From NCBI GenBank assembly GCA_000092065.1, contig CP000598.1: a stretch of 64,000 bases of DNA. One strand, 5' to 3'. Source of the DNA: Ostreococcus lucimarinus. Its lineage: Eukaryota. A model generated the notes under the pieces. That model worked only from the letters and a program-made list of their open reading frames with translations, had not been told where the DNA came from and did not search any database. Shown here piece after piece: positions 15,997 to 62,204 of this stretch (positions are counted from its first letter, which is position 1; each line of letters starts with the position of its first letter). The position numbers were made by a program, and so were the translations under genes.

Positions 15997-16914
15997 TCAG
16001 CAGTTGACAAAAAATAGTTTACAAAGATTTCGCGCGCGCTCGATGACTTCCATTTCGTCGTGCGTAGCGGCGAACTCCAATTCAGGCCACGTCACTAGAG
16101 GCGCGCGCTTTCCCGCGTGCGCGTTATGATTCTTTCGTCGTTCGATGGCGCCTTTGAAATCCAAGTCTTCACACCCGATGAAATGAGAACGCGCGCATAA
16201 CATTTCGAACAGTTTTGAATCGTTCGCGTCCTCAATTTTGAACCAACATTCCGCCGCTTCGTATCCAAGATTTGTGTATGTCGTCCACCACTCTAAACAT
16301 TGCACGTCGTGTCGCAAAGAGTTGAAAACGCTTATGTTGACCTCAAAATCGCGACGAATGTCCTTACCAGCCATTTCAGAGTTGAAATTTGTATCAAATT
16401 GCCACTTCGTTCCTCTGCAGCTGCGTATCACTTGGAGCGGATGTCGAACGATGAGGAAAGTATTCGTGAATACTTCGATTGATCTAATGGGAAATTGTGG
16501 TGAACTCGCCAGCCAGTTTGAGCTTCCGTTCACTCCGAATGTCTCGTGACCTATGTCTACGCCAACATCGCGAAATACTTGAGATACAAAGCCGGTTCCT
16601 GAATAGCCGGCTCCGGTTATGAGAGCTGCGGACGCGATTGCGGATTTGTCGCCCACCCGTACCGGTTTTGAACGACGTCGGAACGACGTCTCGCTGAGAG
16701 CATCTTCTGAGAGACATTGGTCTAGGCATGCGGCACAAACCGTTTCTGATGCAGTAACAAAGAACGAATCGTTCAAATTAACGTACCCCGTTAGCAATAA
16801 GGCGAGAATAGTCGACAGAAATCCACCGACCCTGGTAAAGCGCTCTCTGACTTTGACGAGCGAATACTCGTCACGAGTGACTCGAACTTCACACGCCAGC
16901 GGCGATTCGATCAT
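15997..16914 (-). CDS. type II membrane sulfotransferase-like protein
   Basis: An N-terminal TM anchor is followed by 'AALITGAGYSGTGF', a 5'-PSB-like P-loop (cf. the PKSGTT of carbohydrate sulfotransferases). 'IVRHPLQVIRS' is a 3'-PB-like RDP..vvS motif. Confidence 0.4.
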   Translation of the reverse strand: MIESPLACEVRVTRDEYSLVKVRERFTRVGGFLSTILALLLTGYVNLNDSFFVTASETVCAACLDQCLSEDALSETSFRRRSKPVRVGDKSAIASAALITGAGYSGTGFVSQVFRDVGVDIGHETFGVNGSSNWLASSPQFPIRSIEVFTNTFLIVRHPLQVIRSCRGTKWQFDTNFNSEMAGKDIRRDFEVNISVFNSLRHDVQCLEWWTTYTNLGYEAAECWFKIEDANDSKLFEMLCARSHFIGCEDLDFKGAIERRKNHNAHAGKRAPLVTWPELEFAATHDEMEVIERARNLCKLFFVNC

Positions 16915-17432
16915 TTGAGATCACCACACATTGCCATAGCCATAAAATCGTCAGTGAATGACGCACACGAACGGTTCTGTGTGACTTGCACGGCTGCACG
17001 GCCCAACAGGGGCGACGGTTCGATTGTTTTTACAGCTTCATTTATTACATACGAAAAGAGGCAGCTTTGCGTTGAGGCGACTTGAACCTAAGCTTTTCAT
17101 CTCCACTAGGCCACACCAATGTTCGCGTCGCAGTAGACGTGCAGGACAGACATTCGAATCGGTGCAACGTCGCGCTGTGAGTGGAAAGAACGACGCGGAG
17201 TGGTACGCCTCGATGAATCGTCACACTCTGTCTTATGATGCGCGGATTCACGCGCTGTCGGCGTTCATCGCACGAGTTCTGCTCGCACGCAAATGCGAAG
17301 GCGTACCAAAAGCTATTTCGTGTAGCCCTTTGACAACGACTGGAGGATGGCTGTGCGACCGTTTGGCGCTCGACGCGATTTCCAATTCTGTGTCGATCAC
17401 CCTAAGTAAATCGTAATCTTCTTGTGGGAACG

Positions 17433-18542
17433 TCAGGAATACGTGCTGCACAATTCTGTGACTTGTGCTTTTGCAGACGCGTCGTGAAGTGGATTCACCT
17501 TTAACCAATGCTTGCAGCGAGTACAGTAAATGTCGGTTTGGTTGTCGGTTGTTTTGGCGTTCCAATCTCGTTCCAATCTCGCGCCGATGTCCAGTTCTTC
17601 TGTATCTGAAATCGATTCAACGAAATCTAAGAGTAAATAACATTTGTACCCTTGAAGTCGGATGATTTCCTCCATTAACTCAATCGCTCTGTGAAGACTA
17701 AAGCTCGTGCGCTCGCGATACCACACCGCGGTGTACTCAAAAAACACATTTTTCACCGTTTTCGTTCTGAAGATGCGCATGCCGGACGACAAGACGCTCA
17801 GTTCATTACCTTCCGTATCTATGGCCAATATTTCAACGTCGTCATCATTCAAAGGGATGTCATCGAGCGCGATTGACGACACGATTTTGTGTCCAGCGCC
17901 GACGCCTTCGGCGTGTGTGTGAAACGTGCCAGAGCAAGTGTTGATCGGGGTGTCGATCGCGATCGGCACATCGCTGACGTAGTTGTTATACAACGAAACC
18001 CGTCTGACGAACTGCCGTGGGTACAAGGAAAACGTTTCCTGAATGCCAGAAACACAGAGAGGCAGAGGTTCTACGGCGTACACTCGGTACCCGCTGAGCA
18101 TGAAAATCACGCAGAAAAAGCATTCATGCGCTCCGATGTTTATTGTTGCACCTCTACCACGGGACACACTAGAAATCGCATTAGATTTGTATTCGACTGG
18201 CGTCGAAGCCAATAGATTGCGCAGAATTTGTTGAATTTTCAATTCGCCTCCGTTCACTGGTAACCACTCAAACGTGTCTTCCCTCTTCAGCACGATAGGG
18301 AGATTTACGTAACCGTACACTTCAGTTTTTACGTCCGCCTTGTCTTTGACGAGGGTATGCGTGTCTTCGACGCCGTTTAAGGTGATTTCGCTGATGTTGG
18401 TGTGGCGAGGCGTGAAAACGACCTCTTGTTCGGGGCTCGCTGACACGCTGTAGTTGACACCACGTCGGAGCAGCGTAGGAATAATAAAGAGCGAAAGGAG
18501 AAGCGTATGTTTCGCACGCACTGAAACTTGCAGACTCTGCAT
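17433..18542 (-). CDS. FkbM-family methyltransferase, type II membrane topology
   Basis: N-terminal signal anchor. 'ATINIGAHECF...RVYAVEPLP' is the FkbM DxGAN...afEP motif, and 'ILAIDTEGNELSVLSSG' matches the LKIDvEGaEl.vL.G motif. Confidence 0.55.
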   Translation of the reverse strand: MQSLQVSVRAKHTLLLSLFIIPTLLRRGVNYSVSASPEQEVVFTPRHTNISEITLNGVEDTHTLVKDKADVKTEVYGYVNLPIVLKREDTFEWLPVNGGELKIQQILRNLLASTPVEYKSNAISSVSRGRGATINIGAHECFFCVIFMLSGYRVYAVEPLPLCVSGIQETFSLYPRQFVRRVSLYNNYVSDVPIAIDTPINTCSGTFHTHAEGVGAGHKIVSSIALDDIPLNDDDVEILAIDTEGNELSVLSSGMRIFRTKTVKNVFFEYTAVWYRERTSFSLHRAIELMEEIIRLQGYKCYLLLDFVESISDTEELDIGARLERDWNAKTTDNQTDIYCTRCKHWLKVNPLHDASAKAQVTELCSTYS

Positions 18543-18839
18543 GACCCAAGCGTCGTTCCGGTGAGTGACGTTCGCTGTATGTCGAGCTGTTCTATGTTAA
18601 GTCAAACTGATATGAAGCTCATCAGTTATCGCGTCCTTGAAGAAAAATCTAATAATACGTCGAATAAACCAGTCACGGCTCGTTGCGTATCGGTACTTGA
18701 AAGTGCGCGCATATACAAGTGTACTTTACACTTCAAAATGTTTTCAACGCCTGGAGTGATATTGCTACAAAATTCACCTACTAGATCAGCCACTCGCCTC
18801 GTTTGCGAAGCGAGAGCTTTCGCCGGTGTCTGCGAGCAT

Positions 18840-20162
18840 CTAACGCTCTCCTGGTAGTATCGTTGCGCGTTGATCTATCGCTTGCCCTGTTGGATCCCAG
18901 GAAGGGTATCTCGTCATATTCGATAAGCGCAACGCCAAGGGCGTGTAAAATTGCTCGGCGTTCTCACCGGCTTTGACGAGCTCGTCGACCCTTCTCATGC
19001 GCGCGCCATACGCGCGTACTGGATCGTTCAAACAAAACAATCGCAATTCTTGCATCGTTTGTTCACAAGTCTTATTTGTACCGCTCTTAATGTTTCCTAT
19101 GAAGTCATCGAATCCACCGTATTCCGTCGCCGTCATCATTTTTAGGATATACTGAGGCGGGAAACAATAATTCGTCGCGTGGAATCCTCGACCGAGAACG
19201 TGTTCCATGCGCCCTCGAGGAAGGAGCATTTGGTCGAGGCGATTCGCTACGGTCACACCGGGATCACCGAGCGTCCACGGCATGTTACGCGCCGGAAAGT
19301 CGGATCGAAATGCGAAATTTAGGTTTCCGTACGGAAACCAAATGCCGAAATTACCCGGCAACGCCGTTTCGCAGCGCGCTGCTTTCCAAACGTCTTCCCT
19401 CGCCGGTATCTCGTCCACGTGACCAAAAATAACGAGCGTTTTCTCGTCGTAGCGTTTGGCGAGTTCCCGCGCTATGGCGCTCTCTTTCTCTGCTTCGAAT
19501 TGGAAATTGACCCCGTTCGGCGCCGCGGCGCCGGCTTGCGCGTGTTTGAAAATTTCCACCTTGTCGCGAATCGATTCAAACCTCGCCGTCTGTAATAATG
19601 ATTCAAGCGCGTCAAAAGTGGCTTCGCCTTTGTGCGTGACGTTCGACGTCACGGCGATAAACTTATCGACGACAGGGTGTAATTCGTACAGACGAATCTC
19701 CAACGTATCGACTTCGCCGCCGCCGAAGAGGAAAACATCCACAATATTCCTAGGTTCGTCTAAAGTTTTGCCAGCGTCGCACTCGAATTGAACGCTTGAT
19801 GCGGGTTGTAATGCTATGGAGGAATCGTCATAATCTGTGGGACTCAGAGCCGACGGAAACTGCGCGCGCGTGAGCAGTTCGATCACCCGACGGTGATCGC
19901 TCGATATGCGAACCAACTCTTCACACAGATCACTCGATGGCGCTAACGGTTCATTGAACGCACGAGGCGTGTTCTCATCTGCCGTTTCGCTCACGCTCGC
20001 GTCGATCGATTCACTCTGGTCACCTACTGTGCCGTTCACCGTGACTCCTGTGATGCGAACCAACTCTCGTGGAAAGTCGAAATCGACGTAGAGGTGCACG
20101 TACGCGTAAGTCAGCGTGACGACGACGAAAGCGACGATCTGAAACGCGCGCAGCTGTCTCAT
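18840..20162 (-). CDS. glycosyltransferase family 17-like (GnT-III-like), type II membrane protein
   Basis: 'DVFLFGGGEVDTLEIRLYELHPVVDKFIAVTSNVTHKGE' matches the GT17 core (ELDLLEIRL.EL...VD.FVIVES..TFTG). It has an N-terminal TM. Confidence 0.55.
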   Translation of the reverse strand: MRQLRAFQIVAFVVVTLTYAYVHLYVDFDFPRELVRITGVTVNGTVGDQSESIDASVSETADENTPRAFNEPLAPSSDLCEELVRISSDHRRVIELLTRAQFPSALSPTDYDDSSIALQPASSVQFECDAGKTLDEPRNIVDVFLFGGGEVDTLEIRLYELHPVVDKFIAVTSNVTHKGEATFDALESLLQTARFESIRDKVEIFKHAQAGAAAPNGVNFQFEAEKESAIARELAKRYDEKTLVIFGHVDEIPAREDVWKAARCETALPGNFGIWFPYGNLNFAFRSDFPARNMPWTLGDPGVTVANRLDQMLLPRGRMEHVLGRGFHATNYCFPPQYILKMMTATEYGGFDDFIGNIKSGTNKTCEQTMQELRLFCLNDPVRAYGARMRRVDELVKAGENAEQFYTPLALRLSNMTRYPSWDPTGQAIDQRATILPGER

Positions 20163-20378
20163 GGTGCATGTATGTGACTTGAACCACTTAAATCGAGGAC
20201 GTTACCTTCGTCGACGGTGCGTCCTCGATCGAGCCCCCGAGTGCGGCAACGCGACCGCAGGTCCGCCACTTCGCGGCGTCAACTTGACGCGCGAGAGTCG
20301 AAGAATAAGCGCTTCACGCGTATCGATCGTTGTGTGAGGTAGTGGCTTAAACAGAAGACCAGGTGCGCTGGCAACTGA

Positions 20379-21401
20379 ATGGCTGAACTATCCACGGGGA
20401 AAGTCGAAACCGGCTTGGTGAGCCCAACGATGGGCGTTCGAACCGCCTCGCTGGCGTCGCGAAAGCATCAAGCGCTGGCGCTTTTCATCTTGACGATCCA
20501 AAACACCGCCTTGGTGCTCGTGACGAAGTTTTCGTATAGAAAATCTGCGACGCCTTACGTCGTGTCCACAGTCATCGCGAGCGCCGAGCTCGTCAAACTC
20601 GCTTTGAGCTATATTTTGTTGGTCGCGTCCGACGGACAAAGCGCCGCCCGGGACGCGCTCCGCGAGGTGCCGTCCAACGCGACGCGGCTCGCGGTCCCAT
20701 CCGTGCTGTACGTAATACAAAACAACCTCCTTTTCGAGGGCGTGCGGTTGCTGAGCCCGACCGCATACATGGTGTGTTCGCAGAGCAAAATTCTCACGAG
20801 CACGATTTGTAGCGTCTTGCTCCTAGGAACGCGAATCACGCGTAAACAATATGTAGCGTTGTTGGTCCTCGCGTGTGGGATGATCATGGTACAGAACGAA
20901 GAAGGACGTGGACGCGATTTGCCGTCGGATAGAGCGCAGGTGAGACAAACTGTGCGAGGTATGGTCGTCGTGCTCACCGCCGCGTTTACGTCTGGCTTCG
21001 CGGGGGCGTATTTAGAGAAAATGTACAAAGAAGTGGGCGCTCAAAAGCGATCGGTATGGTTCCGCAACGCACAACTGGCGTGCTTTTCACTTCCAGTGGC
21101 GTTGATCGGATCAGTGTGGCGCGATGGAGAGCGCTTGCGCGCGAACGAAAGCGTGTTTCAAGGATACGACGGCGTCGTGTTGCTCGTCATCGCGCTACAA
21201 GCCGCCGGTGGTTTAGTCGTCGCGGCGGTGTTGCGATACGCGGGAAACGTGCTCAAGTGCTTCGCCGTGTCTATTTCTATATGTAATTGCGCCCTCGCGA
21301 CGACGGTGTTTGCCAACGACGGACACAACCTGAGCGTTACGGCATCTCTCGGCATAGCGCTCGTCATCGGGTCGACGTTTCTTTATTCAAACGTAGTGTA
21401 G
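20379..21401 (+). CDS. Golgi nucleotide-sugar transporter (SLC35A / UDP-Gal/CMP-Sia transporter family)
   Basis: A 340-aa polytopic protein. 'SVLYVIQNNLLFEGVRLLSPTAYMVCSQSKILTSTICSVLLLG' matches the Nuc_sug_transp signature (P..LY.lQNNL.yvAl..L.aatyQV.yQlKIlTTA). Confidence 0.85.
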   Translation: MAELSTGKVETGLVSPTMGVRTASLASRKHQALALFILTIQNTALVLVTKFSYRKSATPYVVSTVIASAELVKLALSYILLVASDGQSAARDALREVPSNATRLAVPSVLYVIQNNLLFEGVRLLSPTAYMVCSQSKILTSTICSVLLLGTRITRKQYVALLVLACGMIMVQNEEGRGRDLPSDRAQVRQTVRGMVVVLTAAFTSGFAGAYLEKMYKEVGAQKRSVWFRNAQLACFSLPVALIGSVWRDGERLRANESVFQGYDGVVLLVIALQAAGGLVVAAVLRYAGNVLKCFAVSISICNCALATTVFANDGHNLSVTASLGIALVIGSTFLYSNVV

Positions 21402-22709: not shown

Positions 22710-23795
22710 GTGCATGCCACTAAATCTCTATCTTCGAAGCCGCGCGCGCGCATGGGATCGCGTAAGCAACGCGTCGCCGTTGTCCTGGCGCTCGTTGCCC
22801 TCGTCGCTGGAGGTGGACTAGTGAAACAGCTGGACACGCGCGGGTGTTCGAAAGATACTTCAGCCGCGACGGTAAGTGGCGCTTCGTCATCAGCTCAACC
22901 ACGCTCGACGGGAGCTGAATCGCGAGACAATAAACGCGAGACGCCACCTATCGATGCTGTCTCCGCGACGAAGATTGATGATCGAGCTGAAAAGTACGCT
23001 ATAATCGTCCCTATGCACGCCGTCACGCAGCTCGAAGTCATGAAAACCACGTGGAAAATATTTCCACCTTGCGCTGCCGATGCGCGAGCCGCACAAATAA
23101 TTGATTTGATTTTCTTATCCGACGTAGACCTCTCGTCGCTCGACGTCACAGGGGGTCACTGCTTTCAGCGAGTGTATCGCCTGCGACCGTTCATCCCGAG
23201 CTGCTACAACGTATACGCACAAGCACCACCGTATTGCTTCTTCACGATGATACTTCATCTCGACTTAGACCGTACGTACGACGCCATACTTCAAGTAGAA
23301 GCTGATTCCGTGCCCGTGAAATCCAATTGGTTGGACGCCGCCGTGGAAAACATATTAAAGCCGACATCGGGCGAAGTGTGGATACACGCAGCGAAAAATG
23401 AACGCGGTGGAAACAATTTCAACGGTAATGGCGCGTACAACTTGCAAAATGACGAATTTCGTCAATTCATAATAGGTTACAGGGAATGGTTTTACACAAA
23501 GGCGGTCAACTCTGGCGACACGGCGTTCGATACAAACATGATTACGTTTGCAAAAGAAGTGGGGTCTTTCGGAAATTTCTCCAACACGCATCTGCGTGCG
23601 TCGAAAAGTCTTCGGAACTGCGATCTCATGTCCCTGACAGCGTGTCGGTCGGCGGTGGATGCGTCCACGTGGGGCGGCGCGACGCCTGAAGCTCTTTTCG
23701 TTCACAGTCACGATCTGAAAGATCCTTCGCGAGTGAGGAGTCAAATCTTGGTGGAAATGCTTGGTAGAGACGATGGTATACGGCAATTCAAATGA
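22710..23795 (+). CDS. hypothetical type II membrane protein
   Basis: 'RVAVVLALVALVAGGGLV' is a signal anchor, followed by a Ser-rich stem and a globular domain of unknown family. Confidence 0.35.
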   Translation: MHATKSLSSKPRARMGSRKQRVAVVLALVALVAGGGLVKQLDTRGCSKDTSAATVSGASSSAQPRSTGAESRDNKRETPPIDAVSATKIDDRAEKYAIIVPMHAVTQLEVMKTTWKIFPPCAADARAAQIIDLIFLSDVDLSSLDVTGGHCFQRVYRLRPFIPSCYNVYAQAPPYCFFTMILHLDLDRTYDAILQVEADSVPVKSNWLDAAVENILKPTSGEVWIHAAKNERGGNNFNGNGAYNLQNDEFRQFIIGYREWFYTKAVNSGDTAFDTNMITFAKEVGSFGNFSNTHLRASKSLRNCDLMSLTACRSAVDASTWGGATPEALFVHSHDLKDPSRVRSQILVEMLGRDDGIRQFK

Positions 23796-24361: not shown

Positions 24362-24393
24362 TCAGATACTTTCTAGACCGTCTAGAAAGTGTC

Positions 24394-24567
24394 TGCGAGC
24401 TATACCTTATAAATTGTGATCAATCGGGCCTAGTGCGTCGATAAGTGATGATGATTACAAGGAGCTATCATTGATTAGTTCATTAATGAGTGTTAACTCG
24501 TCAATTAGTCATCCTAGGTTAACTAGGGGAAGCTATACTTCATATTTTACTCTTCAGATTTCTAACA
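24394..24567 (-). mobile_element. solo LTR of a copia-like retrotransposon (5'-TG...CA-3') flanked by a 5-bp target-site duplication GTGTC
   Basis: 174 bp, about 95% identical to the LTR at 55885..56059 (shared 'caatcgggcctagtgcgtcgataagtgatgatgattacaaggagctat...ttcagatttctaaca'). GTGTC is present at 24389-24393 and at 24568-24572. Confidence 0.6.
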
Positions 24568-24687: not shown

Positions 24688-25674
24688 GTGAAGCCGTGCG
24701 CAAAAGTTCGGCGGTCGTCGATAGGTCTGGCAACGTCGGTCATGCGTTGGTTGAGGGGACGTGGTGTCAAGGCGATAATGTGCGTCGCCCTTGTCGCAGG
24801 TTTCGCCAAGGTACCAGATCTGCACGTCAATAAGTATACTATGACACAGACACTGCAAGGCGACGGCTTTGGTTCACAGTTTCAAAATATCACATCTACC
24901 GCGGCTGCTCTGCACGTCAATAAGTGTACTATGACACAGACACTGCAAGGCGACGGCTTTGGTTCACAGTTTCAAAATATCATATCTACCGCGGTTTTCG
25001 CTCAAACCTTGAACAAACACTTTTGCGTGACCCCTATCGAAAGCATGGAGCACAACTACGACAATCGCTCAACGTTCCTTCGAGAAGTCAGCGAACTGAT
25101 TAATTTACCAGTACTTTCAAGTCAAGAGGACATGGACATTGAAAAGTGCGAGGTTAAAAAAGGCTGGCTGGATAGCTACATAGTTCAGGAAGCAAATCAG
25201 TTGGACGTTCGTACAAAATTGGGTAACATTCGAAAGCAGTTCTTGGGTAACAAGCGCTCGTTGTCGGAACTTCGTAAACACGCTGCCGTGCACATCAGGA
25301 GGCAGAATTCTTTTGATAATCGAAACACTGTTTCTCATGATGAAGTCGTGTGCTTTGTGATGAGGGAAATTCTCACTCAAAACAGCAATATTCAGTTTCA
25401 TGTATTTAGCCAGGGCGATATTTCGGAGTTTTGGCGCTACCAGAACGATTCAAGAATCGTCCTACGTCTCGACGAACCCATCAACGTGACGTTCACTGAA
25501 ATGGTTGTCGCCAAAATTTTGGTCACAGCCACGTCGTCATTTAGCTATGCAGCAGCACTTCTCTCAGAGGGTGAGATATGGGCCCCAAGACCGTTCTGGC
25601 ACAACTACCCTTCCTTCTGGAAGACATATCAGCTTTCTCGTACATTGTCTAACTTTGAGACATGCCTACCATGA
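24688..25674 (+). CDS. GT11-like alpha-1,2-fucosyltransferase-like glycosyltransferase carrying an internal in-frame tandem duplication
   Basis: 'LQGDGFGSQFQNIISTAVFAQ' matches GT11 motif I (GGLGNQMFQYAFA), and the C-terminal 'ATSSFSYAAALLS' matches the (S/T)TFS..A motif. There is an N-terminal TM. Confidence 0.5.
   Translation: MKPCAKVRRSSIGLATSVMRWLRGRGVKAIMCVALVAGFAKVPDLHVNKYTMTQTLQGDGFGSQFQNITSTAAALHVNKCTMTQTLQGDGFGSQFQNIISTAVFAQTLNKHFCVTPIESMEHNYDNRSTFLREVSELINLPVLSSQEDMDIEKCEVKKGWLDSYIVQEANQLDVRTKLGNIRKQFLGNKRSLSELRKHAAVHIRRQNSFDNRNTVSHDEVVCFVMREILTQNSNIQFHVFSQGDISEFWRYQNDSRIVLRLDEPINVTFTEMVVAKILVTATSSFSYAAALLSEGEIWAPRPFWHNYPSFWKTYQLSRTLSNFETCLP
24821..25000. repeat. 2 x 90-bp tandem duplication inside the GT11-like CDS (in frame, duplicating motif I)
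   Basis: 'tgcacgtcaataagt[a/g]tactatgacacagacactgcaaggcgacggctttggttcacagtttcaaaatatca[c/t]atctaccgcgg' occurs twice, at 24821 and 24911. Confidence 0.8.
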
Positions 25675-47044: not shown

Positions 47045-47071
47045 TGCCGCAACTCGAAGCGGATCAATCTA

Positions 47072-49854: not shown

Positions 49855-50056
49855 CTACTGCCGAATTCTTTCAGAGCGGCGAGTAAAACCATCGCGCGAA
49901 CCAAGCGCGAACATCTTGATCGTCAGCGCTATCGACAGAAATTTCCATATTAGTCGACGTTGGGTGCTCAAAGTTTGAACACGTGAAACCAAAATTGAGG
50001 TCCGGTAGAAAGTTGTGAAGCAAAGCGTTCTCGGCAAGTACACCATTTTCGAGCAT
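49855..50056 (-). pseudogene. gene fragment paralogous to the middle of the 51001..53277 glycosyltransferase
   Basis: 'LLHNFLPDLNFGFTCSNFEHPTSTNMEISVDSADDQDV..RAWFARWFYSPL' aligns to 'LLHKLLSSHNFGFFCSNFMHPTVENLELSIDEEGNLVC...RRWLRDWFYGPI'. Confidence 0.5.
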
Positions 50057-53277: not shown

Positions 53278-53705
53278 GCTGAGAGCGGTTGCATCGGCTC
53301 AAAGTGGCATAGTGCTTGAAACTAATTAAGCGTCTTGTGTCTGTCAGTCATAACCACCTTTGCGAGAGGCGATTGTCCGTCATGGTCGTCGGTTCAGCCG
53401 TGCATAGGAATCATTTTAGCGATAGCAAAGGGAGCGAATGGTACACGATCAAGGTGGTCGAGCTTCTCACGCGACGCGGCCACGACATCGTGCAGCGGCT
53501 GAGCGCGCTCCCGGATGACGATTTCGTCTATCTGGCGAACGCGCGGTACTTTTTTCCCACTGGCGGCGGGTACGGAGGACAGGCGAGCATTTGCGTCGAA
53601 AGACTCGGTGGAACGTCGAGCTGGTGGCGCTGGTTTCGTCATCGAAAAGTTGAGCGCTGACTCGAAAGGACGTGCCCAGTGATTTACAAGAGTGTCTATC
53701 ACTTA

Positions 53706-54743
53706 CTACGAGTTTAGGGAATTTTCCACGCCCTCAATACCACCATCGAAGCGAATGAATGCGAATTCGACGCACATTTTGTGCAATAGTGAATACTTGA
53801 TATTCGGCTCTTTGTGGAAAATGTAAAAGTTTTCGTCGTGAAGGCGTCGGAAGAAACGTTTCGCCACCGGCTCGCGCAAAGGGTCGAGCGCGCCGCGGCC
53901 GAAAAGTTGATCGCCGACGATCAGAGAGAGCCACGATTGATGTACTTCTTTCAAGTTCGAGTCAATCGTGCCCGCGTGTATTTCCACGAGCATTTCATCG
54001 ACGCGCACGTCGGCGTCGATCCAGCTGCCGTAAGTGCTCCATTCGCAGCCTTCGCAGTCAATTTTTAATACGTCTATCGTCCTTCCTTTGTGACCGAGCG
54101 CGACGACGACGTCGGCTAAACTTTTCAAATCGCTCCCATCGGGTTCGCGCGCGCCTCCTAATCCCCATGGTTGAAAGTGGACACCGCACGGTTTGTTTCG
54201 CGGGTTCGACACCGTGTGATCGAACACGTGTATTTCGCACGCGCTCGACACGTCCCGCATGATCGCTTCTTCGAAACTAAAGTCATCGAAACTTCCGACG
54301 CTATATATCAAACCGTCCGCCCCCCGCGCGCGCAGACGGTTCGGGTCGCACAAACACTTCCCACCCTCGCCAGCTGGACCGACGCGCTCTTCGCGCGCGC
54401 ACGTCACGGCGGGCTCCACGTTGTCTTGGTACCAACCGTCGGCTCTCTGCGTACCTCCGCGCGAGACGGTGTCGAAGAGCGCGTAGCGCTTGAGCTTATC
54501 GGCGTTGATCGCGTTGATCGCGCGATCGAAGGCGGCGTCGACGTCTTTTGCGATCGGCGCCGTCGAACGCGTCGGCTTCGGTTGTGCGCACGAGTGCTGT
54601 TCTTCGACCCGAGCACGCACGGGTTTGGCGAGGTGATACCGTGTGAACAGGGTGAAACACGCCGCGAAAAGCAGCAACGCGCTGATTTCTCGCGCGCGCT
54701 TCGATCGTGCGAGGACGGAGCCGTTCGAAGCGAGACGAATCAT
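53706..54743 (-). CDS. FkbM-like methyltransferase, type II membrane topology
   Basis: The anchor is 'ALLLFAACFTLF'. 'LIYSVGSFDDFSFEEAI' and 'IDVLKIDCEGCEWSTY' match the FkbM LKIDvEG motif. Confidence 0.45.
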   Translation of the reverse strand: MIRLASNGSVLARSKRAREISALLLFAACFTLFTRYHLAKPVRARVEEQHSCAQPKPTRSTAPIAKDVDAAFDRAINAINADKLKRYALFDTVSRGGTQRADGWYQDNVEPAVTCAREERVGPAGEGGKCLCDPNRLRARGADGLIYSVGSFDDFSFEEAIMRDVSSACEIHVFDHTVSNPRNKPCGVHFQPWGLGGAREPDGSDLKSLADVVVALGHKGRTIDVLKIDCEGCEWSTYGSWIDADVRVDEMLVEIHAGTIDSNLKEVHQSWLSLIVGDQLFGRGALDPLREPVAKRFFRRLHDENFYIFHKEPNIKYSLLHKMCVEFAFIRFDGGIEGVENSLNS

Positions 54744-54900: not shown

Positions 54901-55779
54901 TCACGACGCATAAATGTCCCCTCCCCGCGACATTTCGCTGTAGTGCTTCGTCGCTCGAGGCAGCTTAAAGTGCAACAACACCTCCTCGTCTGTGCGCACG
55001 TCCGCGACGCGTCGACTCGCCGCGCTCAACGCGTCTCTATGTTGCACGCGCCAACGGAACTCGATCGAATCTCCATCCGCGATGCTTTCGTAGAGCAACG
55101 CGGGCCCGGTGTAGTACAACGAATGATAAAAGTGTTGTCGGTCGGCGACGTTCGCGGCGATTTTGTCCATCGCGCGCGCGAAAACATCCAACCCGGGGAC
55201 CGCCACCATGAACGCGTTCCACACTTGTTTCGGCCCGCCCGCGAGTTTGTACACGCGTCTGTCGTACACGAACAACGCGTCGTGGCGCATATCGTGGGTC
55301 AATTCGTCGAGAGACTTCACCAGTAAAATGTCATCGTCCATCCAAGCGCCGCCTTCGGTGTACAGAATGCAGTACCGCAACAAATCAGCCTTGAACGCGA
55401 GTGGTTTTAGTGCTCTGTACGCGCGTAAATATTTTTTGCAGTTCGTTTCTATATACTCGGCTCCGCCGTACACGTCGTACGTCTTCAACGTCCACGTCGG
55501 GTTGAGTCGCGTGGTGATTTTTAACGGGAACGACGAATCGTTCGGTAACGTCAGGGTGTGCAACTTGCGAGGTAAAGGCTTTGTGTCAGTCGTCGTTGTC
55601 CATAACACCGGTACTGGTACGTCGTTCCAATGACTTTGTAAACCTCGCCAAAATGCTTGAAGCAAAAGTATACTTGCTATGGTGACGAATAGTACGAACG
55701 CGAACGTTCGTGTAGTCTTGCGACGAATATAGCGTGAGACGATGGTAAACGACTCGTTCCAAATGCCTTCGCCTTTCAT
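54901..55779 (-). CDS. glycosyltransferase family 32 (Och1/alpha-1,6-mannosyltransferase-like, DxD)
   Basis: 'KADLLRYCILYTEGGAWMDDDILL' is the GT32 signature (kaDllRy.iLy.yGGiYlDtD). The anchor is 'FAFVLFVTIASILLL'. Confidence 0.75.
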   Translation of the reverse strand: MKGEGIWNESFTIVSRYIRRKTTRTFAFVLFVTIASILLLQAFWRGLQSHWNDVPVPVLWTTTTDTKPLPRKLHTLTLPNDSSFPLKITTRLNPTWTLKTYDVYGGAEYIETNCKKYLRAYRALKPLAFKADLLRYCILYTEGGAWMDDDILLVKSLDELTHDMRHDALFVYDRRVYKLAGGPKQVWNAFMVAVPGLDVFARAMDKIAANVADRQHFYHSLYYTGPALLYESIADGDSIEFRWRVQHRDALSAASRRVADVRTDEEVLLHFKLPRATKHYSEMSRGGDIYAS

Positions 55780-55884: not shown

Positions 55885-58563
55885 TGCGAGCTATACCTTA
55901 TATGATTGTGAGCAATCGGGCCTAGTGCGTCGATAAGTGATGATGATTACAAGGAGCTATGATTGATTAGTTCATTAATGAGTGTTAACTCGTCAATTAG
56001 TCATCCTAGGTTAACTAGGGGAAGCTATACTTCATACTTTACTCTTCAGATTTCTAACACACCTCCTTAGCTTTCTCTAGTCTGAGGGCTTATCAATCAA
56101 TACCTTTGAAAGGTTGGATTTCCTCACTTTCGACCTTCTCGAGATATTCTTGAAATGTGTGCAGAGCGTCACTCTTCACCATACCTTCACTCAACCTCTG
56201 GTTGATGAAGTCTCGTATGTCCTTTGAAGATATATGACTTAACATTACGTTGAAGTGATTAGAACACTCGTGAACGTCTGTTGTACCTGAAAAGTTCTTC
56301 TTGTTCGGCAATATCTTTGTCAACATATCGGCTAGATTGTATGACGATCCGATGTTGAATGGCTGTATAATCCCTTCTCTGTGAGCATAATGTTGGAGCC
56401 AAGCGTATCTTATTTCCATATGCTTGTTTGACTTTGACGACATCGTCTCCATCGCTTGTCGAATGGCTGTCGTGTTGTCACAAAACAATGGTACCCTGGA
56501 AAGTTTGAACCCAAGTTCTCTAAGTAACAAGATTTGAAAGAATAAATCTTTCGCGGCTTCATACATTGCCATAAACTCTGCTTGCGCTGAACTCGTGGCT
56601 GGTATTCCTTGCAGTTTGCTCTTCCAATTGGTAGGGCCGCATGAAAAAGATATATACCCCGATGTGGATTTTCTTCCGCATCTATCTTTCGAATTTAAGG
56701 ATAACTTTTGGCCTGCCCAATCCGAGTCTGTAAATCCTGCAAGTCTCACTATACCATTGCATTCAGCACCGTTGTAGGTTAATGGAATATTGGGGTTCCT
56801 CTTGAGATATCCAACTGCTCTGCATAGAGCGCTAAATTGTTTATGCGTTGGGTTACTTGCTACTCTTCCAGCTAGGCTGCATACCACAGCAAGATCCGGG
56901 CGAGTAGCTGTATTGAACCAATTCAGACTTCCCAACACTTGTTGATATGTTGTCCGTTTCATCCTGTCTACTGCATCTGTGTCATCCTCCTTGGCGAGAA
57001 CAAACATATCTGATGGTAGTAACGGTGAATCGCGAGCATTGATGTCTTGCACTGGGCATTTTGCTAGGAATTGCGCAATCGAATATTCTTGGCTCAGTGT
57101 GTAGCAGTGCTTCTCTAATCTGTGCATATTAATGCCGTTATACACTTTGCACTGTTCAAATTGCGATACTTTGTAGGTGTCTGAAAACTCGGTGTGGAAA
57201 CGTTCAACTTTTTCATTGTCCTGAGCCAATATTAGGAGATCATCCACCAAGACTGAAATGATCAGAAATGGTTTACCATGATTCATCTTAACAAATAAGC
57301 AGCTATCTTTGGCTAGTTGGGTTAAACCAATAGACCTTAGTGTCTTGGTTACATGAAGATACCAACATCTTCCAGCTTGCTTTGTTCCATATAGAGGTCT
57401 CTTTAATTTGTAGACTACTCCTTTCGGAAGCGGATGAGATCGTGGTGCTTTGATGAATATATCATCTAAAAGCTCTCCTTGAGTATAAGCTTGGGATACA
57501 TCTATCGTAAAGATGTCCCATCCTAAGATTGCCGCAATATTGATGAGTATCCTAAACGTGGTCATGGAAGCAACAGCACTAAATGTGTCGTGGTAGTCCT
57601 TCAACCAAACTTGGGTGAATCCTTGCACTACCAATCTAGACTTAAGGGAACCATCTGGTTTTACCTTATCTACCCATTTGGATCCACAAATATTTGCATC
57701 TCCGGCTTCATCAATACTGACCTCCATTAATGTGGTTTCGAGCAATCCATTGAGCTCTTTTGCTCTGCTCTCTGAGAAATCCACACTTGACTCATCAATA
57801 ATTTTACCGTATTCTTCGCCTTTTGCGACGGCTGTGGCTAGCACACTGTGTGCTGCCCTATTTGTCGAATCAGCGTTATTTAGCGCAGGATTCAATTTTA
57901 CCGTTTTATCGCCATAACTCCCGCCCTGAAGCTGGATATGCGAATACTTAGAGAACTTGGGTTCAAACTTTCCAGGGTACCATTGTTTTGTGACAACACG
58001 ACAGCCATTCGACAAGCGATGGAGACGATGTCGTCAAAGTCAAACAAGCATATGGAAATAAGATACGCTTGGCTCCAACATTATGCTCACAGAGAAGGGA
58101 TTATACAGCCATTCAACATCGGATCGTCATACAATCTAGCCGATATGTTGACAAAGATATTGCCGAACAAGAAGAACTTTTCAGGTACAACAGACGTTCA
58201 CGAGTGTTCTAATCACTTCAACGTAATGTTAAGTCATATATCTTCAAAGGACATACGAGACTTCATCAACCAGAGGTTGAGTGAAGGTATGGTGAAGAGT
58301 GACGCTCTGCACACATTTCAAGAATATCTCGAGAAGGTCGAAAGTGAGGAAATCCAACCTTTCAAAGGTATTGATTGATAAGCCCTCAGACTAGAGAAAG
58401 CTAAGGAGGTGTGTTAGAAATCTGAAGAGTAAAGTATGAAGTATAGCTTCCCCTAGTTAACCTAGGATGACTAATTGACGAGTTAACACTCATTAATGAA
58501 CTAATCAATCATAGCTCCTTGTAATCATCATCACTTATCGACGCACTAGGCCCGATTGCTCAC
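55885..58563. mobile_element. truncated Ty1/copia retrotransposon rearranged into a palindrome: the RT core is flanked by roughly 640-bp inverted copies of its own 3' end (RNase H C-terminus + PPT + LTR)
   Basis: Arm A, 55885..56526, is the reverse complement of arm B, 57948..58563. The arm B ORF 57938..58378 encodes the same 146 aa as the C-terminus of the minus-strand pol ORF. The LTR TGTTAG...GCTCGCA sits at 55885..56059, with the PPT-like 'gctaaggaggtg' next to it. Confidence 0.8.
56093..58015 (-). CDS. copia-type pol fragment (reverse transcriptase + RNase H). gag, PR and IN are absent
   Basis: 'YVDDLLILAQDNEKVE' is RT motif C (the YVDD box). 'ATSSAQAEFMAMYEAAKDLFFQILLLRELG...CDNTTAIRQA' is the copia RNase H. 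The first roughly 25 codons of the ORF are the antisense of arm B and are not genuine. Confidence 0.8.
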   Translation of the reverse strand: MSNGCRVVTKQWYPGKFEPKFSKYSHIQLQGGSYGDKTVKLNPALNNADSTNRAAHSVLATAVAKGEEYGKIIDESSVDFSESRAKELNGLLETTLMEVSIDEAGDANICGSKWVDKVKPDGSLKSRLVVQGFTQVWLKDYHDTFSAVASMTTFRILINIAAILGWDIFTIDVSQAYTQGELLDDIFIKAPRSHPLPKGVVYKLKRPLYGTKQAGRCWYLHVTKTLRSIGLTQLAKDSCLFVKMNHGKPFLIISVLVDDLLILAQDNEKVERFHTEFSDTYKVSQFEQCKVYNGINMHRLEKHCYTLSQEYSIAQFLAKCPVQDINARDSPLLPSDMFVLAKEDDTDAVDRMKRTTYQQVLGSLNWFNTATRPDLAVVCSLAGRVASNPTHKQFSALCRAVGYLKRNPNIPLTYNGAECNGIVRLAGFTDSDWAGQKLSLNSKDRCGRKSTSGYISFSCGPTNWKSKLQGIPATSSAQAEFMAMYEAAKDLFFQILLLRELGFKLSRVPLFCDNTTAIRQAMETMSSKSNKHMEIRYAWLQHYAHREGIIQPFNIGSSYNLADMLTKILPNKKNFSGTTDVHECSNHFNVMLSHISSKDIRDFINQRLSEGMVKSDALHTFQEYLEKVESEEIQPFKGID

Positions 58564-58798: not shown

Positions 58799-60196
58799 TT
58801 GAAGTGTCACGCGCCGTCACTTAAGACGGCGATGCCCCGCCAGTTCCGTCTTCCGCCTCGCTCTGAAAGTTTGCTATTTAGTAGTGACTGTGCAAGAGGG
58901 GCACATGCCACAAGCCACGGTGGTAGACGAGGGGTGGGCCGACATAGACAAAATCACTGCGTAGTCCTCGCGTGGCGTCTTCTAACTCTCACTTGCGCGA
59001 TTTCCGTGTGTGCTTTGTTGGTCGCTCGCGGCCTGGAAAACATTCGTTTGTACCGTGCTGGGAACTTTGTTAGCTCTTTGGCACACGTATTGGACAGGGC
59101 AGTCGGTGTGGAGAAACTCGAGGAACTTCAGAAAGTGTGCACGCGGAGTACGGCGATAGAGGAGACATACCTGGTGACTGGCGCAGCTGGTTTTATCGGA
59201 AGTTACGTCGCACGAGCGCTCAACGAGCGTCGTGTACGAGTCGTTGGTTTAGATAACATCAACGGCTACTACCCGAGGGCTTTGAAGAGAAATCGGATTT
59301 CAAAGCTCGCAGAGGTTGGCGTGCACGTGGTGGAGGCGGACCTCAATGACTCTTTGACACTCAGGGGGATTTTAGATACGTGTAGAGTGACGACAATCGT
59401 ACACTTGGCAGCACAAGCGGGCGTGAGATATGCAGTGAAAAATCCAGGGTCGTATGTTCACTCAAATGTCGCAGGTTTTGTTTCACTGCTCGAAGAAGTA
59501 GTGAAGACAAGTCCTATACCAAGAGTGATCTTTGCCTCGTCGTCGAGTGTATATGGGTTGAACACAAAGCTTCCGTTTAGCGAATCGGATGTAACTGATT
59601 CGCCAGCGTCACTATACGCCGCAACCAAAAAAGCGAATGAACTCTTGGCGCGCACATACAATCATATTCATGGTGTTGCATTGACGGCGCTGCGCTTTTT
59701 CACAGTCTATGGGCCGCACGGTAGACCTGATATGGCGTACTACTCGTTCGCGAATAATATCAGGGCAGGGCAACTTGTGAATATATTTAGAAGTGCCGAT
59801 GGCAGTGAACTTGCACGTGACTTTACATACATAGATGATATTGTTCGTGGTATCATTGCAGCATGCGATACAAGCGAGGCTAGTGGGAAGAAAGCAGATG
59901 GTTCGAACCCACCTTTTAGGGTATATAATCTTGGCAACACGCATCCGGTGACGGTGAGCGACTTCGTCTCGAAACTTGAACACGCCCTTGGCATGGTGGC
60001 CAAGCGCAACTACTTGCCCATGCCCAAGACTGGGGATGTCCCTTACACACATGCCAACATCAGTGCTGCTGAACGTGACTTGTCGTACAAACCCAGAGTT
60101 GATCTTGATACTGGTCTTCAATATTTCGCGGAATGGTACTTAGGTTACTATGATAGTGGCGCGAACAGTGAGGACTTCAAGTACATACCACTGTGA
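58799..60196 (+). CDS. UDP-glucuronate 4-epimerase (GAE-type, membrane-anchored)
   Basis: 'YLVTGAAGFIGSYVA' is the GxxGxxG. 'YAATKKANE' is the YxxxK pair. 'FFTVYGPHGRPDMAYYSFANNI' matches the GAE signature FFTVYGPWGRPDMAYFFFT. The N-terminal TM is 'VVLAWRLLTLTCAISVCALLV'. Confidence 0.8.
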   Translation: MKCHAPSLKTAMPRQFRLPPRSESLLFSSDCARGAHATSHGGRRGVGRHRQNHCVVLAWRLLTLTCAISVCALLVARGLENIRLYRAGNFVSSLAHVLDRAVGVEKLEELQKVCTRSTAIEETYLVTGAAGFIGSYVARALNERRVRVVGLDNINGYYPRALKRNRISKLAEVGVHVVEADLNDSLTLRGILDTCRVTTIVHLAAQAGVRYAVKNPGSYVHSNVAGFVSLLEEVVKTSPIPRVIFASSSSVYGLNTKLPFSESDVTDSPASLYAATKKANELLARTYNHIHGVALTALRFFTVYGPHGRPDMAYYSFANNIRAGQLVNIFRSADGSELARDFTYIDDIVRGIIAACDTSEASGKKADGSNPPFRVYNLGNTHPVTVSDFVSKLEHALGMVAKRNYLPMPKTGDVPYTHANISAAERDLSYKPRVDLDTGLQYFAEWYLGYYDSGANSEDFKYIPL

Positions 60197-60259
60197 TGCA
60201 TCTGATCTGAAGAACCGACCACGAGATTTGGAGATGAACGCTTTAGCTTCCAATAAAAT

Positions 60260-61267
60260 CTAAAAGCATGACATGTCTCGCTGCCCAGATACATCGCACT
60301 CCTGTTGAAAGTATTTCTCCCAAAGCTCTTTGTGAGGTGTGTATCGACACCAAGGTTTCGACTGACCTGACCAATGGAGAACTCTCGCTTCATTCAGTAC
60401 CGACGCTCTAAGCCCTTTTTTGTAGCCGACTCCATCAACATTCCAATGCGATGGAATTGACTCGAAGGAATCGCCAAACACTAGCAACAAGGGAGGCTGA
60501 CTTCCATGGCTATATAATTTCGACACTGAGTTCATCTTCAACCAAGTCTCTACAGTTGAAGTAATTCTCTTACGCCGCCAGCTTTCAAGGTCGATTAGGA
60601 GTACCCCGGCATTGAAAGAATGCATTTTTTCACGAAGACCTGACGATTTTACCGCCGCATTTGAGAAATTGAGCAGACTACCGAGGGGGACACTTCGCTT
60701 CACAGCAGCAATGACAGATGTTGAAGACGAACGTAAATTTGCGTCATGTAACCTGCATATGTCACCTTTGACAATAATGTCAGTATCCAGATAGACTACT
60801 TTCTGGACGTCTGATAATATTTCTGCAAAGTAGAAGCGGGCATAGTTGAAAGCGTTTTGCAGCCTCCACTCTTTTCTGCTGTGTACAGTTATATTAGCTC
60901 GAATCATATCTTTGGAAAATTCGTGTAGTTCCCAGATGAAGGGTATTGCTCGGCTGTAGCAATTCAATTGCACACTAGCATCAGTGAGAGCATCGCGTGC
61001 AGTGAAGATGTGAAACCGTATCCGATGAGGTGACGCGGTGGCCGAAAGCACTGAACTGATCACAGGCCCTAACGTAAATAACTGAGTAGGATCGCAGGCA
61101 AATGCTATGTGAACCAGGGACTGAGCGTTCGGTATCTTTCTCCGAGGAAACACACGTATTAGAACGAACACGAAAAGCAAAATTCGACATATCGTGATGC
61201 TCGTGCGTGCGACTCTCACCGTATTGTTGAACCTAATAGAGGGGCGCAACATGTATGACAGTTTCAC
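60260..61267 (-). CDS. glycosyltransferase family 8, GATL/GAUT-like (putative galacturonosyltransferase)
   Basis: 'NYARFYFAEILSDVQKVVYLDTDIIVKGDI' is the DxD motif. 'FNAGVLLIDLESWRR' and 'ARVLHWSGQSKPW' match the plant GATL/GAUT GT8 core. The anchor is 'ICRILLFVFVLI'. Confidence 0.8.
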   Translation of the reverse strand: MKLSYMLRPSIRFNNTVRVARTSITICRILLFVFVLIRVFPRRKIPNAQSLVHIAFACDPTQLFTLGPVISSVLSATASPHRIRFHIFTARDALTDASVQLNCYSRAIPFIWELHEFSKDMIRANITVHSRKEWRLQNAFNYARFYFAEILSDVQKVVYLDTDIIVKGDICRLHDANLRSSSTSVIAAVKRSVPLGSLLNFSNAAVKSSGLREKMHSFNAGVLLIDLESWRRKRITSTVETWLKMNSVSKLYSHGSQPPLLLVFGDSFESIPSHWNVDGVGYKKGLRASVLNEARVLHWSGQSKPWCRYTPHKELWEKYFQQECDVSGQRDMSCF

Positions 61268-62204
61268 GTCAGGTTTGACGTTTCAAGTCGTCCACTGCTG
61301 TAGCCGAACCATGCTGAGCTCAAGTCCACGAGCGTGGCCGAATCTCGCCTGAACGTAGTTTCGCTTTAGATGTCTTTCCAAACACTGCTTTACTAGAAGC
61401 CTTCGACACCGTCAGATTCTGCGGTCGATGTAGTAGAAGATCGGAGCGAACAAATAGAAAAGAAAGGGCAATATAAGAGGGTGCGCAACATTCAGTTCAT
61501 TGAATTCATTCAATTGAACCAATCAATTGACCTTTCAACGTTTTGTCTCTCACCTCGGATCCACCTGGATCTGACGTCGTGAACAGATCGTTCGGATTCT
61601 CGTGGGTGTCGGCTTCGAAGGGCATGAACCCTATCGATAGTGCGCCACCCCGAGCTGTGTTGTACCTCATGTATGTTAGATTTCTCAGTTTACGCTCGGC
61701 GGCATAGCGTCATACCGTTCTTTATAGAGCCACTTGTAGATTTAATGTTGTCTGTCCCTTACAATGATGTACACCCTGAGCATGTTGAATGTGCCAGATA
61801 GGGTCAATCACATCGCTCAAGAAGCTAGTACAGAACGTTGATCATGATGAGCCGGAAGTATATTTTTCTGGTGAAGTGATATCACTGGGCAGTATCACTG
61901 GCGGCAAGCACAGTGCTGAATGGTCAGTACCCTTCGGAGAAACTCTAGATATATATTTTAATTCGCGATTCTAACGTTGCCGTGGGAAGTCTTGAATTTT
62001 CAGTCTCTATACCGCTCGCATCGATCCAGGAGCGTTTATGGCGGTTGTAAATGTGCCACTTTCTGGTGGTCTTGTCAACAAGGATCCATGTTTGGCTGCA
62101 AAACCCAAGCACAGTCACTGTCCGATCACCGTCCGATATCCCATCTAGCGTCTGGTATCCTCCTTTGACAAGCGCAGAAACGTTTCTCGTAGACCGTTGT
62201 CTAT

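Follow-up and report, generated by a model that had tools for sequence, protein, structure and literature searches.

A telomere-proximal sugar-gene region of Ostreococcus lucimarinus chromosome 18, the small outlier chromosome

We analyzed a 64,000-nucleotide stretch of DNA from Ostreococcus lucimarinus (contig CP000598.1 of GenBank assembly GCA_000092065.1; here called the window), centering on positions 16 to 62 kb, where genes for making, importing, transferring, and modifying sugars are densely packed. Exact protein identities place the window at the right-hand end of chromosome 18 of O. lucimarinus CCE9901; it spans the final 64 kb and includes the telomere, and the 16- to 62-kb region is the telomere-proximal 46 kb of this chromosome, the small outlier chromosome (SOC) of the species. 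An earlier note on the same DNA, made by reading the letters, had described the region as a subtelomeric glycan-decoration island. We confirmed glycosyltransferases by Pfam gathering scores, with an NCBIfam scan besides. The nucleotide-sugar enzymes, transporters, glycosyltransferases, and methyltransferases of the region are as follows.

17433-18542, minus strand: FkbM-family methyltransferase (PF05050, 62 bits; TIGR01444, 45.7 bits; identical to XP_001422343)
18840-20162, minus strand: GT17 glycosyltransferase (PF04724, 52 bits; type II anchor at aa 4-22; identical to XP_001422344)
20379-21401, plus strand: SLC35A-type nucleotide-sugar transporter (PF04142, Nuc_sug_transp, 240 bits; TIGR00803, 111 bits)
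24742-25674, plus strand: GT11-like type II protein of the fucosyltransferase superfamily (supported through its homologues)
26987-28195, minus strand: FkbM-family methyltransferase (PF05050, 36.5 bits; hydrophobic segment at aa 88-106)
28695-30980, plus strand: drug/metabolite transporter (DMT)/EamA-type protein fused to a STELLO-like glycosyltransferase (Pfam and hydropathy)
31358-32602, minus strand: GDP-mannose-dehydratase (GMD)-like extended short-chain dehydrogenase/reductase (SDR; PF16363, 213 bits; N-terminal anchor at aa 10-28)
32856-34277, plus strand: UDP-glucose-6-dehydrogenase-type nucleotide-sugar dehydrogenase (UGD; PF03721 and PF00984; no anchor)
38175-39364, minus strand: dTDP/UDP-glucose 4,6-dehydratase (TIGR01181, 299 bits; GC rich; no anchor)
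41427-43796, plus strand: signal-anchored fusion of the nonhydrolyzing UDP-GlcNAc 2-epimerase WecB (aa 75-463) and a C-terminal GT-A glycosyltransferase domain
44079-45116, plus strand: FkbM-family methyltransferase (PF05050, 48.7 bits; type II anchor at aa 19-37)
47072-48265, minus strand: GT61 glycosyltransferase (PF04577, 59 bits)
48623-49828, plus strand: GT90 (CAP10-type) glycosyltransferase (PF05686, 34.6 bits; type II anchor at aa 15-33)
53706-54743, minus strand: Methyltransf_22-family methyltransferase (PF13383, 172 bits; identical to XP_001422352)
54901-55779, minus strand: GT32 glycosyltransferase (PF04488, 36 bits; type II anchor at aa 25-43; identical to XP_001422353)
58832-60196, plus strand: UDP-glucuronate 4-epimerase (GAE)-like SDR (PF01370, 164 bits; type II anchor at aa 44-62 by hydropathy)
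60260-61252, minus strand: GT8 glycosyltransferase (PF01501, 146 bits; type II anchor at aa 17-35; convergent with the GAE gene)

The earlier note had counted five nucleotide-sugar enzymes and two nucleotide-sugar transporters, and all seven were recovered, the enzymes by hidden Markov model (HMM) searches and PDB matches. On TIGR03026, UGD reached 221 bits (cutoff, 190); the PDB entries it matched best were UDP-glucose 6-dehydrogenases (3vtf, 151 bits). The GAE-like SDR matched best to 5u4q (297 bits) and to 6zl6/6zla (140 bits), which we take to be the UDP-glucuronate (UDP-GlcA) 4-epimerase of Bacillus cereus. The GMD-like SDR scored under all NCBIfam equivalog cutoffs, so its specificity was not assigned. 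The 4,6-dehydratase appears frameshifted in the list of open reading frames (ORFs), a break accounted for by a canonical 107-nt GT-AG intron (39280-39174) between exons 39364-39281 and 39173-38175; the spliced product, of 360 aa, is identical to XP_001422349 and XP_001422283. The WecB portion of the fusion at 41427-43796 is of the bacterial type and reached 426.6 bits on TIGR00236, for which the cutoff is 210. As for the transporters, the Nuc_sug_transp match of the first is joined by an EamA/DMT domain (36 bits) with 8 hydrophobic segments in the N-terminal half of the second, whose C-terminal half matches STELLO (72 to 74 bits). A precedent for such a fusion is the transporter-GT92 protein ostta19g00600 (PMC5082852).

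Six glycosyltransferases passed the Pfam gathering scores (GT17, STELLO, GT61, GT90, GT32, and GT8). The GT17 protein is the only one of its family in CAZy from these algae (PMC3797821), and the GT90 protein is named "CAP10 domain" in UniProt. GT8 is a family that includes the plant galacturonosyltransferases. The GT11-like protein has no Pfam match itself; it has 835 homologues, 7 of 43 sampled match PF01531 (Glyco_transf_11; best E value, 1.2e-6), and UniProt names it "Fucosyltransferase." Most of the family calls of the earlier note for glycosyltransferases, methyltransferases, and nucleotide-sugar enzymes thus agreed with the HMM searches, with two counts to be lowered. Its "at least ten" glycosyltransferases become six by Pfam plus two with indirect support (the GT11-like protein through homologues and a GT64-like domain through its fold), and two or three further calls lacked verification. 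Its five FkbM methyltransferases become three (17433, 26987, and 44079), since the fourth methyltransferase belongs to PF13383 and a fifth FkbM gene was found neither by HMM nor when the whole set of island proteins was searched against the window by tblastn.

Even at the lower count, the density of these genes is high. Of about 25 genes, six to eight encode glycosyltransferases, compared with 57 genome-wide, or 0.75% of genes (PMC3797821); the binomial P is 3e-8 to 1e-11. An all-against-all BLASTP (E value, 1e-3) matched no two transferases or FkbM proteins to each other, and the only paralogue-type match was among the three SDRs (23 to 28% identity). The set is therefore diverse, without recent paralogy or tandem expansion.

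The GT-A domain of the WecB fusion carries a DDD motif and appears to have a GT64/GT27-like fold. We took as GT64-like a GT-A fold with a DXD-type metal site whose nearest relatives are EXTL2 and the EXT GT64 domains. At the sequence level, the domain (42834-43796) had no Pfam family at an E value of ≤10 and no PDB sequence match, so the GT64 likeness is supported at the fold level only. The domain family is without a Pfam model, the same fusion is frequent among marine metagenome proteins, and the only named homologue of the domain is a hypothetical protein of Tritrichomonas foetus. A literature search for WecB or a ManNAc pathway in Ostreococcus found none. The fusion may define an unnamed "make-and-transfer" enzyme family of protists.

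Membrane anchoring was widespread: a hydropathy scan found an N-terminal hydrophobic segment in about 17 to 18 of the 22 nontransporter proteins, the GMD-like SDR, GAE, and WecB among them. The segment was missing from UGD, the 4,6-dehydratase, and ORF 21539 and was weak in GT61. The earlier note had held that nearly every protein is anchored and that all have type II Golgi topology. Hydropathy agrees with the anchors in these 17 to 18 proteins; the topology is a prediction from it and does not hold for UGD or the 4,6-dehydratase. The absence of anchors from these two enzymes and their presence elsewhere would suit a pathway that starts in the cytosol and continues with interconversion and transfer in the lumen. 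Public models of three genes are shorter at the N terminus than the ORFs (GAE, 345 aa; GT8, 259 aa and partial; FkbM 26987, 162 aa), and the anchors are therefore missing from them.

The identity of the chromosome was established by exact-sequence look-ups. Many ORF products of the window are identical to GenBank proteins of O. lucimarinus CCE9901, all on one 149,386-bp record; besides those named in the list above, these include XP_001422302, XP_001422303, XP_001422316, XP_001422338, and XP_001422357 (the look-ups for the 20379 transporter and GT90 returned no match). Chromosome 18 is listed as the O. lucimarinus SOC by Moreau 2012, with 149 kb, 53% GC, and 78 ORFs, 16 of them for sugar metabolism and 5 for methylation (PMC3491373 Table 2), and by Yau 2016, with 150 kb, 97 ORFs, 11 methyltransferases, 8 glycosyltransferases, 6 NAD epimerase/dehydratases, and 4 sugar transporters (PMC5082852 Table 1). 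Taken together, the protein identities, the record length, and these tables make the window the right-hand 43% of chromosome 18. The window ends in the following array.

63818-64000, plus strand: telomere, (TTTAGGG) x26, perfect repeats, G-rich strand pointing outward

Because the G-rich strand of this array points outward, we read it as the true right end of the chromosome (25 TTTAGGG matches observed versus 0 expected). The region of low GC stops 2.5 kb short of it. GC content is 0.500 in 16001-62000 versus 0.609 in the adjoining 4001-16000, and two GC-rich patches lie inside the region, at 38.0 to 39.6 kb (58%) and at 50 to 52 kb (60%). Mamiellales genomes other than Bathycoccus have a GC content above 59% (PMC3491373).

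These observations agree with what characterizes an SOC, the smallest, atypical chromosome of a Mamiellophyceae nuclear genome, to which the protein identities with chromosome 18 assign the region. Its GC content lies below that of the rest of the genome (0.50 versus 0.61 in the adjacent patch; 53% published for the chromosome), and glycosyltransferases, sugar-nucleotide enzymes, sugar transporters, and methyltransferases are in excess. Some genes are lineage restricted with few orthologues (4 homologues for 15997 and 3 for 51004). Structural hypervariability is seen in metagenome evidence, namely, at least four left flanks of one gene block, variation in the copy number of a 90-bp repeat, and gene clusters of only 2, 2, and 1 members. 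The earlier note's proposal of an SOC of Mamiellophyceae is thus upheld by the identical proteins and the published tables (PMC3491373; PMC5082852), as are the lower GC and the position at a chromosome end that it had pointed out. Its term "subtelomeric" island falls short in scale: the low-GC glycan region is most of a tiny chromosome's body, not an island tipping a normal chromosome.

Several further proteins of the region have no firm family assignment.

15997-16914, minus strand: 305-aa lineage-restricted protein, called sulfotransferase-like in the earlier note (N-terminal hydrophobic anchor at aa 29-47)
22752-23795, plus strand: 347-aa type II protein (anchor at aa 8-26)
35022-36575, plus strand: 517-aa type II protein, adjoining UGD also in environmental contigs
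45719-47044, plus strand: 441-aa protein, called fucosyltransferase-like in the earlier note (subthreshold matches)
51004-53277, plus strand: 757-aa lineage-restricted protein in a GC-rich, probably duplicated segment

The 305-aa protein had no Pfam, NCBIfam, or PDB match and only 4 homologues among 5.8 billion clusters. The motifs TGxGYSGTG and VRHPLxVxxS are conserved among these homologues and resemble sulfotransferase motifs only loosely; an AF2 model built with the four homologues was unusable (pLDDT, 33). The 347-aa protein had no Pfam match even at an E value of ≤10 and is named "Nucleotide-diphospho-sugar transferase domain-containing" in UniProt. The only match of the 517-aa protein was a subthreshold one to Glyco_trans_1_2 (E = 0.037), and those of the 441-aa protein, to O-FucT (E = 0.028) and XG_FTase (E = 0.057), were likewise under the cutoff. 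The 757-aa protein, with no Pfam or PDB match and 3 homologues among the same clusters, carries the UniProt name "Nucleotide-diphospho-sugar transferase domain," and an identical protein stands under two GenBank accessions. A phmmer search against PDB with five ORFs or domains (42834-43796, 24742, 15997, 45719, and 51004) gave nothing significant. We also considered a shared fucosyltransferase-superfamily origin of the GT11-like protein, 45719, and 51004; it found no support: when the GT11-like profile was aligned by hhalign with 45719 and with the C-terminal half of 51004, neither alignment reached significance (probability, <1%).

Within the GT11-like gene, an in-frame 90-bp tandem duplication (24819-24994) doubles the conserved motif QGDGFGSQFQ. 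Environmental variants carry one or two repeat copies, with the first copy sometimes decayed to QCDRFGSQ; the one-copy form could be mimicked by assembly collapse. Relatives of the GT11-like protein at 27 to 38% identity lie on 158 IMG/VR contigs, most of which are named as giant-virus metagenome-assembled genomes. IMG/VR scans with the GMD-like SDR, FkbM 17433, and the partner domain of WecB found no viral relatives except one SDR match at 24% identity.

The region also holds the remains of a retroelement and of several genes.

36712-37431, minus strand: degenerate, internally deleted UGD paralogue (pseudogene fragments; tblastn)
40073-40210: fragment of the 517-aa gene
41010-41231, minus strand: 3'-end fragment of a GT90 paralogue (inverted repeat, 90%; tblastn, 84% identity)
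49931-50098: fragment of the 757-aa gene
55908-58563: rearranged copia-type retroelement remnant (RVT_2, 150 bits)

In the retroelement remnant, the reverse transcriptase ORF (56093-58015, minus strand) sits between perfect 619-nt inverted arms (55908-56526 and 57945-58563, 100% complementary), which reflect an assembly artifact or else an inverted duplication of very recent origin. A 155-nt end piece of the remnant recurs as a third copy at 24413-24567. In tblastn, the UGD pseudogene aligns with aa 77-198 at 57% identity and with aa 390-473 at 50%, and the corresponding gene called in three environmental contigs (L002 to L004) matches PF03721. Direct repeats of 300 and 180 nt flank the segment that holds this decayed copy and the GC-rich dehydratase. 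The "transposon scars" of the earlier note are therefore real, comprising the copia-type RVT_2 ORF within its inverted repeat, the dispersed 155-nt repeat, and the gene fragments.

Next, we compared the region with short-read and metagenome assemblies. Independent short-read (Logan) assemblies were 100% identical to the window over 8840-20483 (11.6 kb) and 41133-48808 (7.7 kb), and ORFs were intact and 99 to 100% conserved in other samples. The block from 32812 to 39545, which includes UGD, was found at 99.1 to 99.8% identity in environmental contigs. Its left junction, at 32812, is sharp, falls 44 nt before the UGD start codon, and joins at least four different left flanks among metagenome contigs: the SDR gene, as in the window; an FG-GAP protein together with a copy of a gene from 6.2 to 7.0 kb of the window; a third sequence; and a DDE transposase. 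In resistant Ostreococcus mediterraneus, the overexpressed SOC genes include some for FG-GAP proteins (bioRxiv 10.64898/2026.02.10.705097). On the right, the block stops in contig L002 at about 39545 against the dispersed 155-nt repeat. Wild O. lucimarinus may swap whole gene cassettes at fixed junctions such as the one upstream of UGD. As a candidate recurrent recombination signal at the junction we considered the motif GTACTAATTGTAG and rejected it, as its 2 matches in the window versus 0.65 expected were not significant.

Clustering at 90% identity gave tens to hundreds of members for most genes; beside the telomere, it gave 2 for GAE, 2 for GT8, and 1 for ORF 62205. This suggests that the telomere-side module of these three genes is nearly strain specific. 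The module (58832-62621) lies between the retroelement remnant and the telomere. The repeats, flank variation, and near-strain-specific module match the pattern of O. tauri chromosome 19, where long-read population genomics found strain-specific DNA along with duplicated segments and segments translocated from standard chromosomes (PMC5498103).

Some genes of the window may have counterparts in the other arm of the chromosome. The 757-aa protein, the 360-aa dehydratase, and a 219-aa protein each appear in identical form under two GenBank accessions, both within the 149,386-bp record (gene regions 49981-53700, 38175-39364, and 62300-63837), and close paralogues of GT90 and of the Methyltransf_22 protein are also on this record. 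Short-read contigs end exactly at 49981, and the contig with the 219-aa gene measures only 1,548 bp. The order of accessions suggests mirrored gene copies in the left arm of chromosome 18, which would resemble the inverted repeat region of O. tauri chromosome 19. The 219-aa ORF itself (63178-63837) runs into the telomere, with its stop codon inside the first telomeric repeats; its family was not assigned, and its cluster has 16 members of varied length.

Left of the region lies a 12-kb patch (4001-16000) of 61% GC, embedded in the low-GC chromosome, with the following genes.

7877-10102: BCCT transporter
10459-11085: Myb protein
13238-15880: cytosine-5 DNA methyltransferase with CXXC and Tudor domains

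The patch departs from the published description of the entire SOC as low in GC (PMC3491373) and is like the translocations from standard chromosomes reported in O. tauri (PMC5498103). Farther left, an 843-aa protein (2303-4834) without a Pfam family has a paralogue of ≥90% identity (841 aa, XP_001422333) at another place on chromosome 18.

This part of the SOC probably encodes a secretory-pathway assembly line for glycans, with an antiviral role by analogy. The gene set is nonredundant, and its family assignments suggest the following scheme. UGD and the 4,6-dehydratase, which lack anchors and are probably cytosolic, would produce UDP-GlcA and a 4-keto-6-deoxyhexose nucleotide, respectively. 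Nucleotide sugars would then be imported by the two DMT-superfamily transporters, one of them fused to the STELLO-like transferase, and would be acted on by membrane-anchored enzymes with predicted lumenal catalytic domains. Among these, GAE would convert UDP-GlcA to UDP-GalA next to GT8, WecB would convert UDP-GlcNAc to UDP-ManNAc in direct fusion with its GT-A transferase, and the GMD-like SDR would take part with a specificity that was not assigned. Eight or more type II transferases of unrelated families would extend the glycans, which four methyltransferases probably O-methylate. By analogy with other Ostreococcus species, a changed presence or expression of these genes would change the surface glycans that prasinoviruses meet and thereby susceptibility, with the repeats, retroelement remnant, and duplicated fragments as a likely substrate for rearrangement. 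The order of steps, the coupling of GAE to GT8 and of WecB to its transferase, and the methylation of sugars we infer from knowledge of the families.

The link to virus resistance is experimental in other species. In resistant lines of O. tauri, about a third of the differentially transcribed genes lie on the SOC, and most SOC glycosyltransferases are affected (PMC5082852); SOC size also correlates with resistance (PMC5498103; Blanc-Mathieu 2017). For O. mediterraneus, the SOC holds 95% of the genes whose expression differs consistently (bioRxiv 10.64898/2026.02.10.705097). The earlier note's connection between such chromosomes and prasinovirus resistance accordingly stands for O. tauri and O. 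mediterraneus and extends to O. lucimarinus chromosome 18 by analogy only. Several points weigh against our interpretation. The antiviral role is explicitly called an open question for O. lucimarinus (PMC6851583), and SOC glycosyltransferases are overexpressed in resistant and susceptible O. mediterraneus alike, which makes the direction of the effect less than straightforward (bioRxiv 10.64898/2026.02.10.705097). Golgi residence and type II orientation were read from hydropathy, donor and acceptor specificities are family-level guesses, and six or seven ORFs had no assignable family in the Pfam scan. Metagenome contigs can be chimeric or come from sister populations.

The conservation of most genes, intact and at 99 to 100% across many environmental samples, would also be expected if they built a normal glycocalyx, or glycans by which gametes or species recognize each other, with no specific antiviral role, and "cell surface processes" have been proposed for SOCs in general terms (PMC3491373). 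We regard this as improbable, given that most resistance-linked differentially expressed genes lie on the SOC in both O. tauri and O. mediterraneus (PMC5082852; bioRxiv 10.64898/2026.02.10.705097), that SOC size in O. tauri correlates with resistance (PMC5498103), and that diversifying selection agrees better than housekeeping with the flank variation and the nearly strain-specific module beside the telomere. Somewhat less probable still is that the transferases act inside the cell, competing with viral glycosyltransferases for nucleotide sugars or acceptors and disturbing virion glycosylation or assembly while adsorption is unaffected. This alternative has been raised for O. mediterraneus (bioRxiv 10.64898/2026.02.10.705097). 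The region does have enzymes that divert nucleotide-sugar pools and a GT11-like family in common with giant viruses, but most of its proteins have membrane anchors typical of lumenal secretory-pathway enzymes. Capsid glycosylation in the best-studied algal viruses, the chloroviruses, is thought to be largely cytoplasmic, which we also count against intracellular action.

The low GC, the lineage-restricted genes (4 homologues for 15997 and 3 for 51004), the bacterial-type WecB, the gene fragments, and the transposon remnant could instead mark a tolerated dumping ground of horizontally acquired DNA on a dispensable chromosome, with genes that form no one pathway; an excess of horizontal transfer on SOCs has indeed been reported (PMC3491373). 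The long uninterrupted ORFs, the eukaryotic signal anchors found even on bacterial-type enzymes, the complementary functions (dehydrogenase, epimerase, transporter, and transferase), and the high conservation across samples make this very unlikely. Viral or bacterial contamination or misassembly, for which nothing speaks beyond atypical GC and bacterial-type or virus-related gene families, is refuted by the plant-type telomere, the GT-AG intron, the exact protein matches to the finished O. lucimarinus chromosome, and the independent Logan assemblies identical over 11.6 and 7.7 kb. A chromosome 18 assembly line for surface glycans thus remains our preferred explanation.

The dense sugar-gene load is real, and both phenomenon and locus are already in the literature; the result is a correct rediscovery. 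O. lucimarinus chromosome 18 as described before (PMC3491373, crediting earlier Ostreococcus genome papers; PMC5082852) is the same locus, and nothing differs in kind. To its public annotation, our analysis adds the N-terminal anchors, the full-length WecB-glycosyltransferase and transporter-STELLO fusions, and several pseudogene fragments. A close counterpart is the "viral immunity chromosome," chromosome 19, of O. tauri, which has the same functional categories, including a transporter-glycosyltransferase fusion (PMC5082852; PMC5498103), and also contains strain-specific DNA, genes related to transposons, and modules that have been duplicated and shuffled. The two species have orthologues for only about 11% of their SOC genes (PMC5082852), and O. 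tauri chromosome 19 is marked by an inverted repeat region of about 180 kb and a 2.5-kb tandem glycosyltransferase array. Resistance-linked differential expression and size change have been shown for that chromosome, whereas the O. lucimarinus counterpart is known here from its sequence.

The SOCs of Bathycoccus prasinos (chromosome 19) and Micromonas (chromosome 17 or 19) share low GC, few orthologues, and a dominance of glycosyltransferases and methyltransferases (PMC3491373 Table 2). There is no synteny and almost no orthology with them, and the likeness is one of functional convergence. The hypervariable islands of Prochlorococcus (cited in PMC3491373) are likewise variable regions with few orthologues, abound in sugar-modifying enzymes and methyltransferases, and are linked to cyanophage resistance, but they are prokaryotic and act on cell-envelope polysaccharide, in contrast to Golgi-type enzymes on a eukaryotic chromosome. 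Another parallel is with the Golgi of plants. The pectin module of plants combines a membrane-anchored UDP-GlcA 4-epimerase (GAE) with GT8 galacturonosyltransferases. Similarly, the putative type II GAE-like SDR adjoins a type II GT8 protein, with a UDP-glucose dehydrogenase that would be upstream in the pathway. Unlike plants, Ostreococcus has no cell wall, and GT8 also covers enzymes that use other donors.

Three details may go beyond earlier descriptions, although we rate this as rather doubtful: the WecB/GT-A family, the cassette exchange together with the strain-specific telomere genes, and the mirrored identical copies in both arms. These, with the giant-virus-related GT11-like family, are modest leads, not discoveries. 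If the interpretation of the WecB/GT-A fusion holds, the enzyme would both produce UDP-ManNAc and consume it on site in the secretory lumen, and a bacterial-type sugar would be displayed on the surface of a green alga. The SOC is among the clearest eukaryotic genome compartments devoted to virus-driven variation of surface glycans, in an abundant marine primary producer. Our analysis adds no new phenomenon to this picture; it shows the compartment to be recognizable from raw sequence. The gene-level map, with its anchors, two fusions, GAE-GT8 pair, cassette junction, and giant-virus-shared family, could guide O. lucimarinus experiments on glycan chemistry and resistance.

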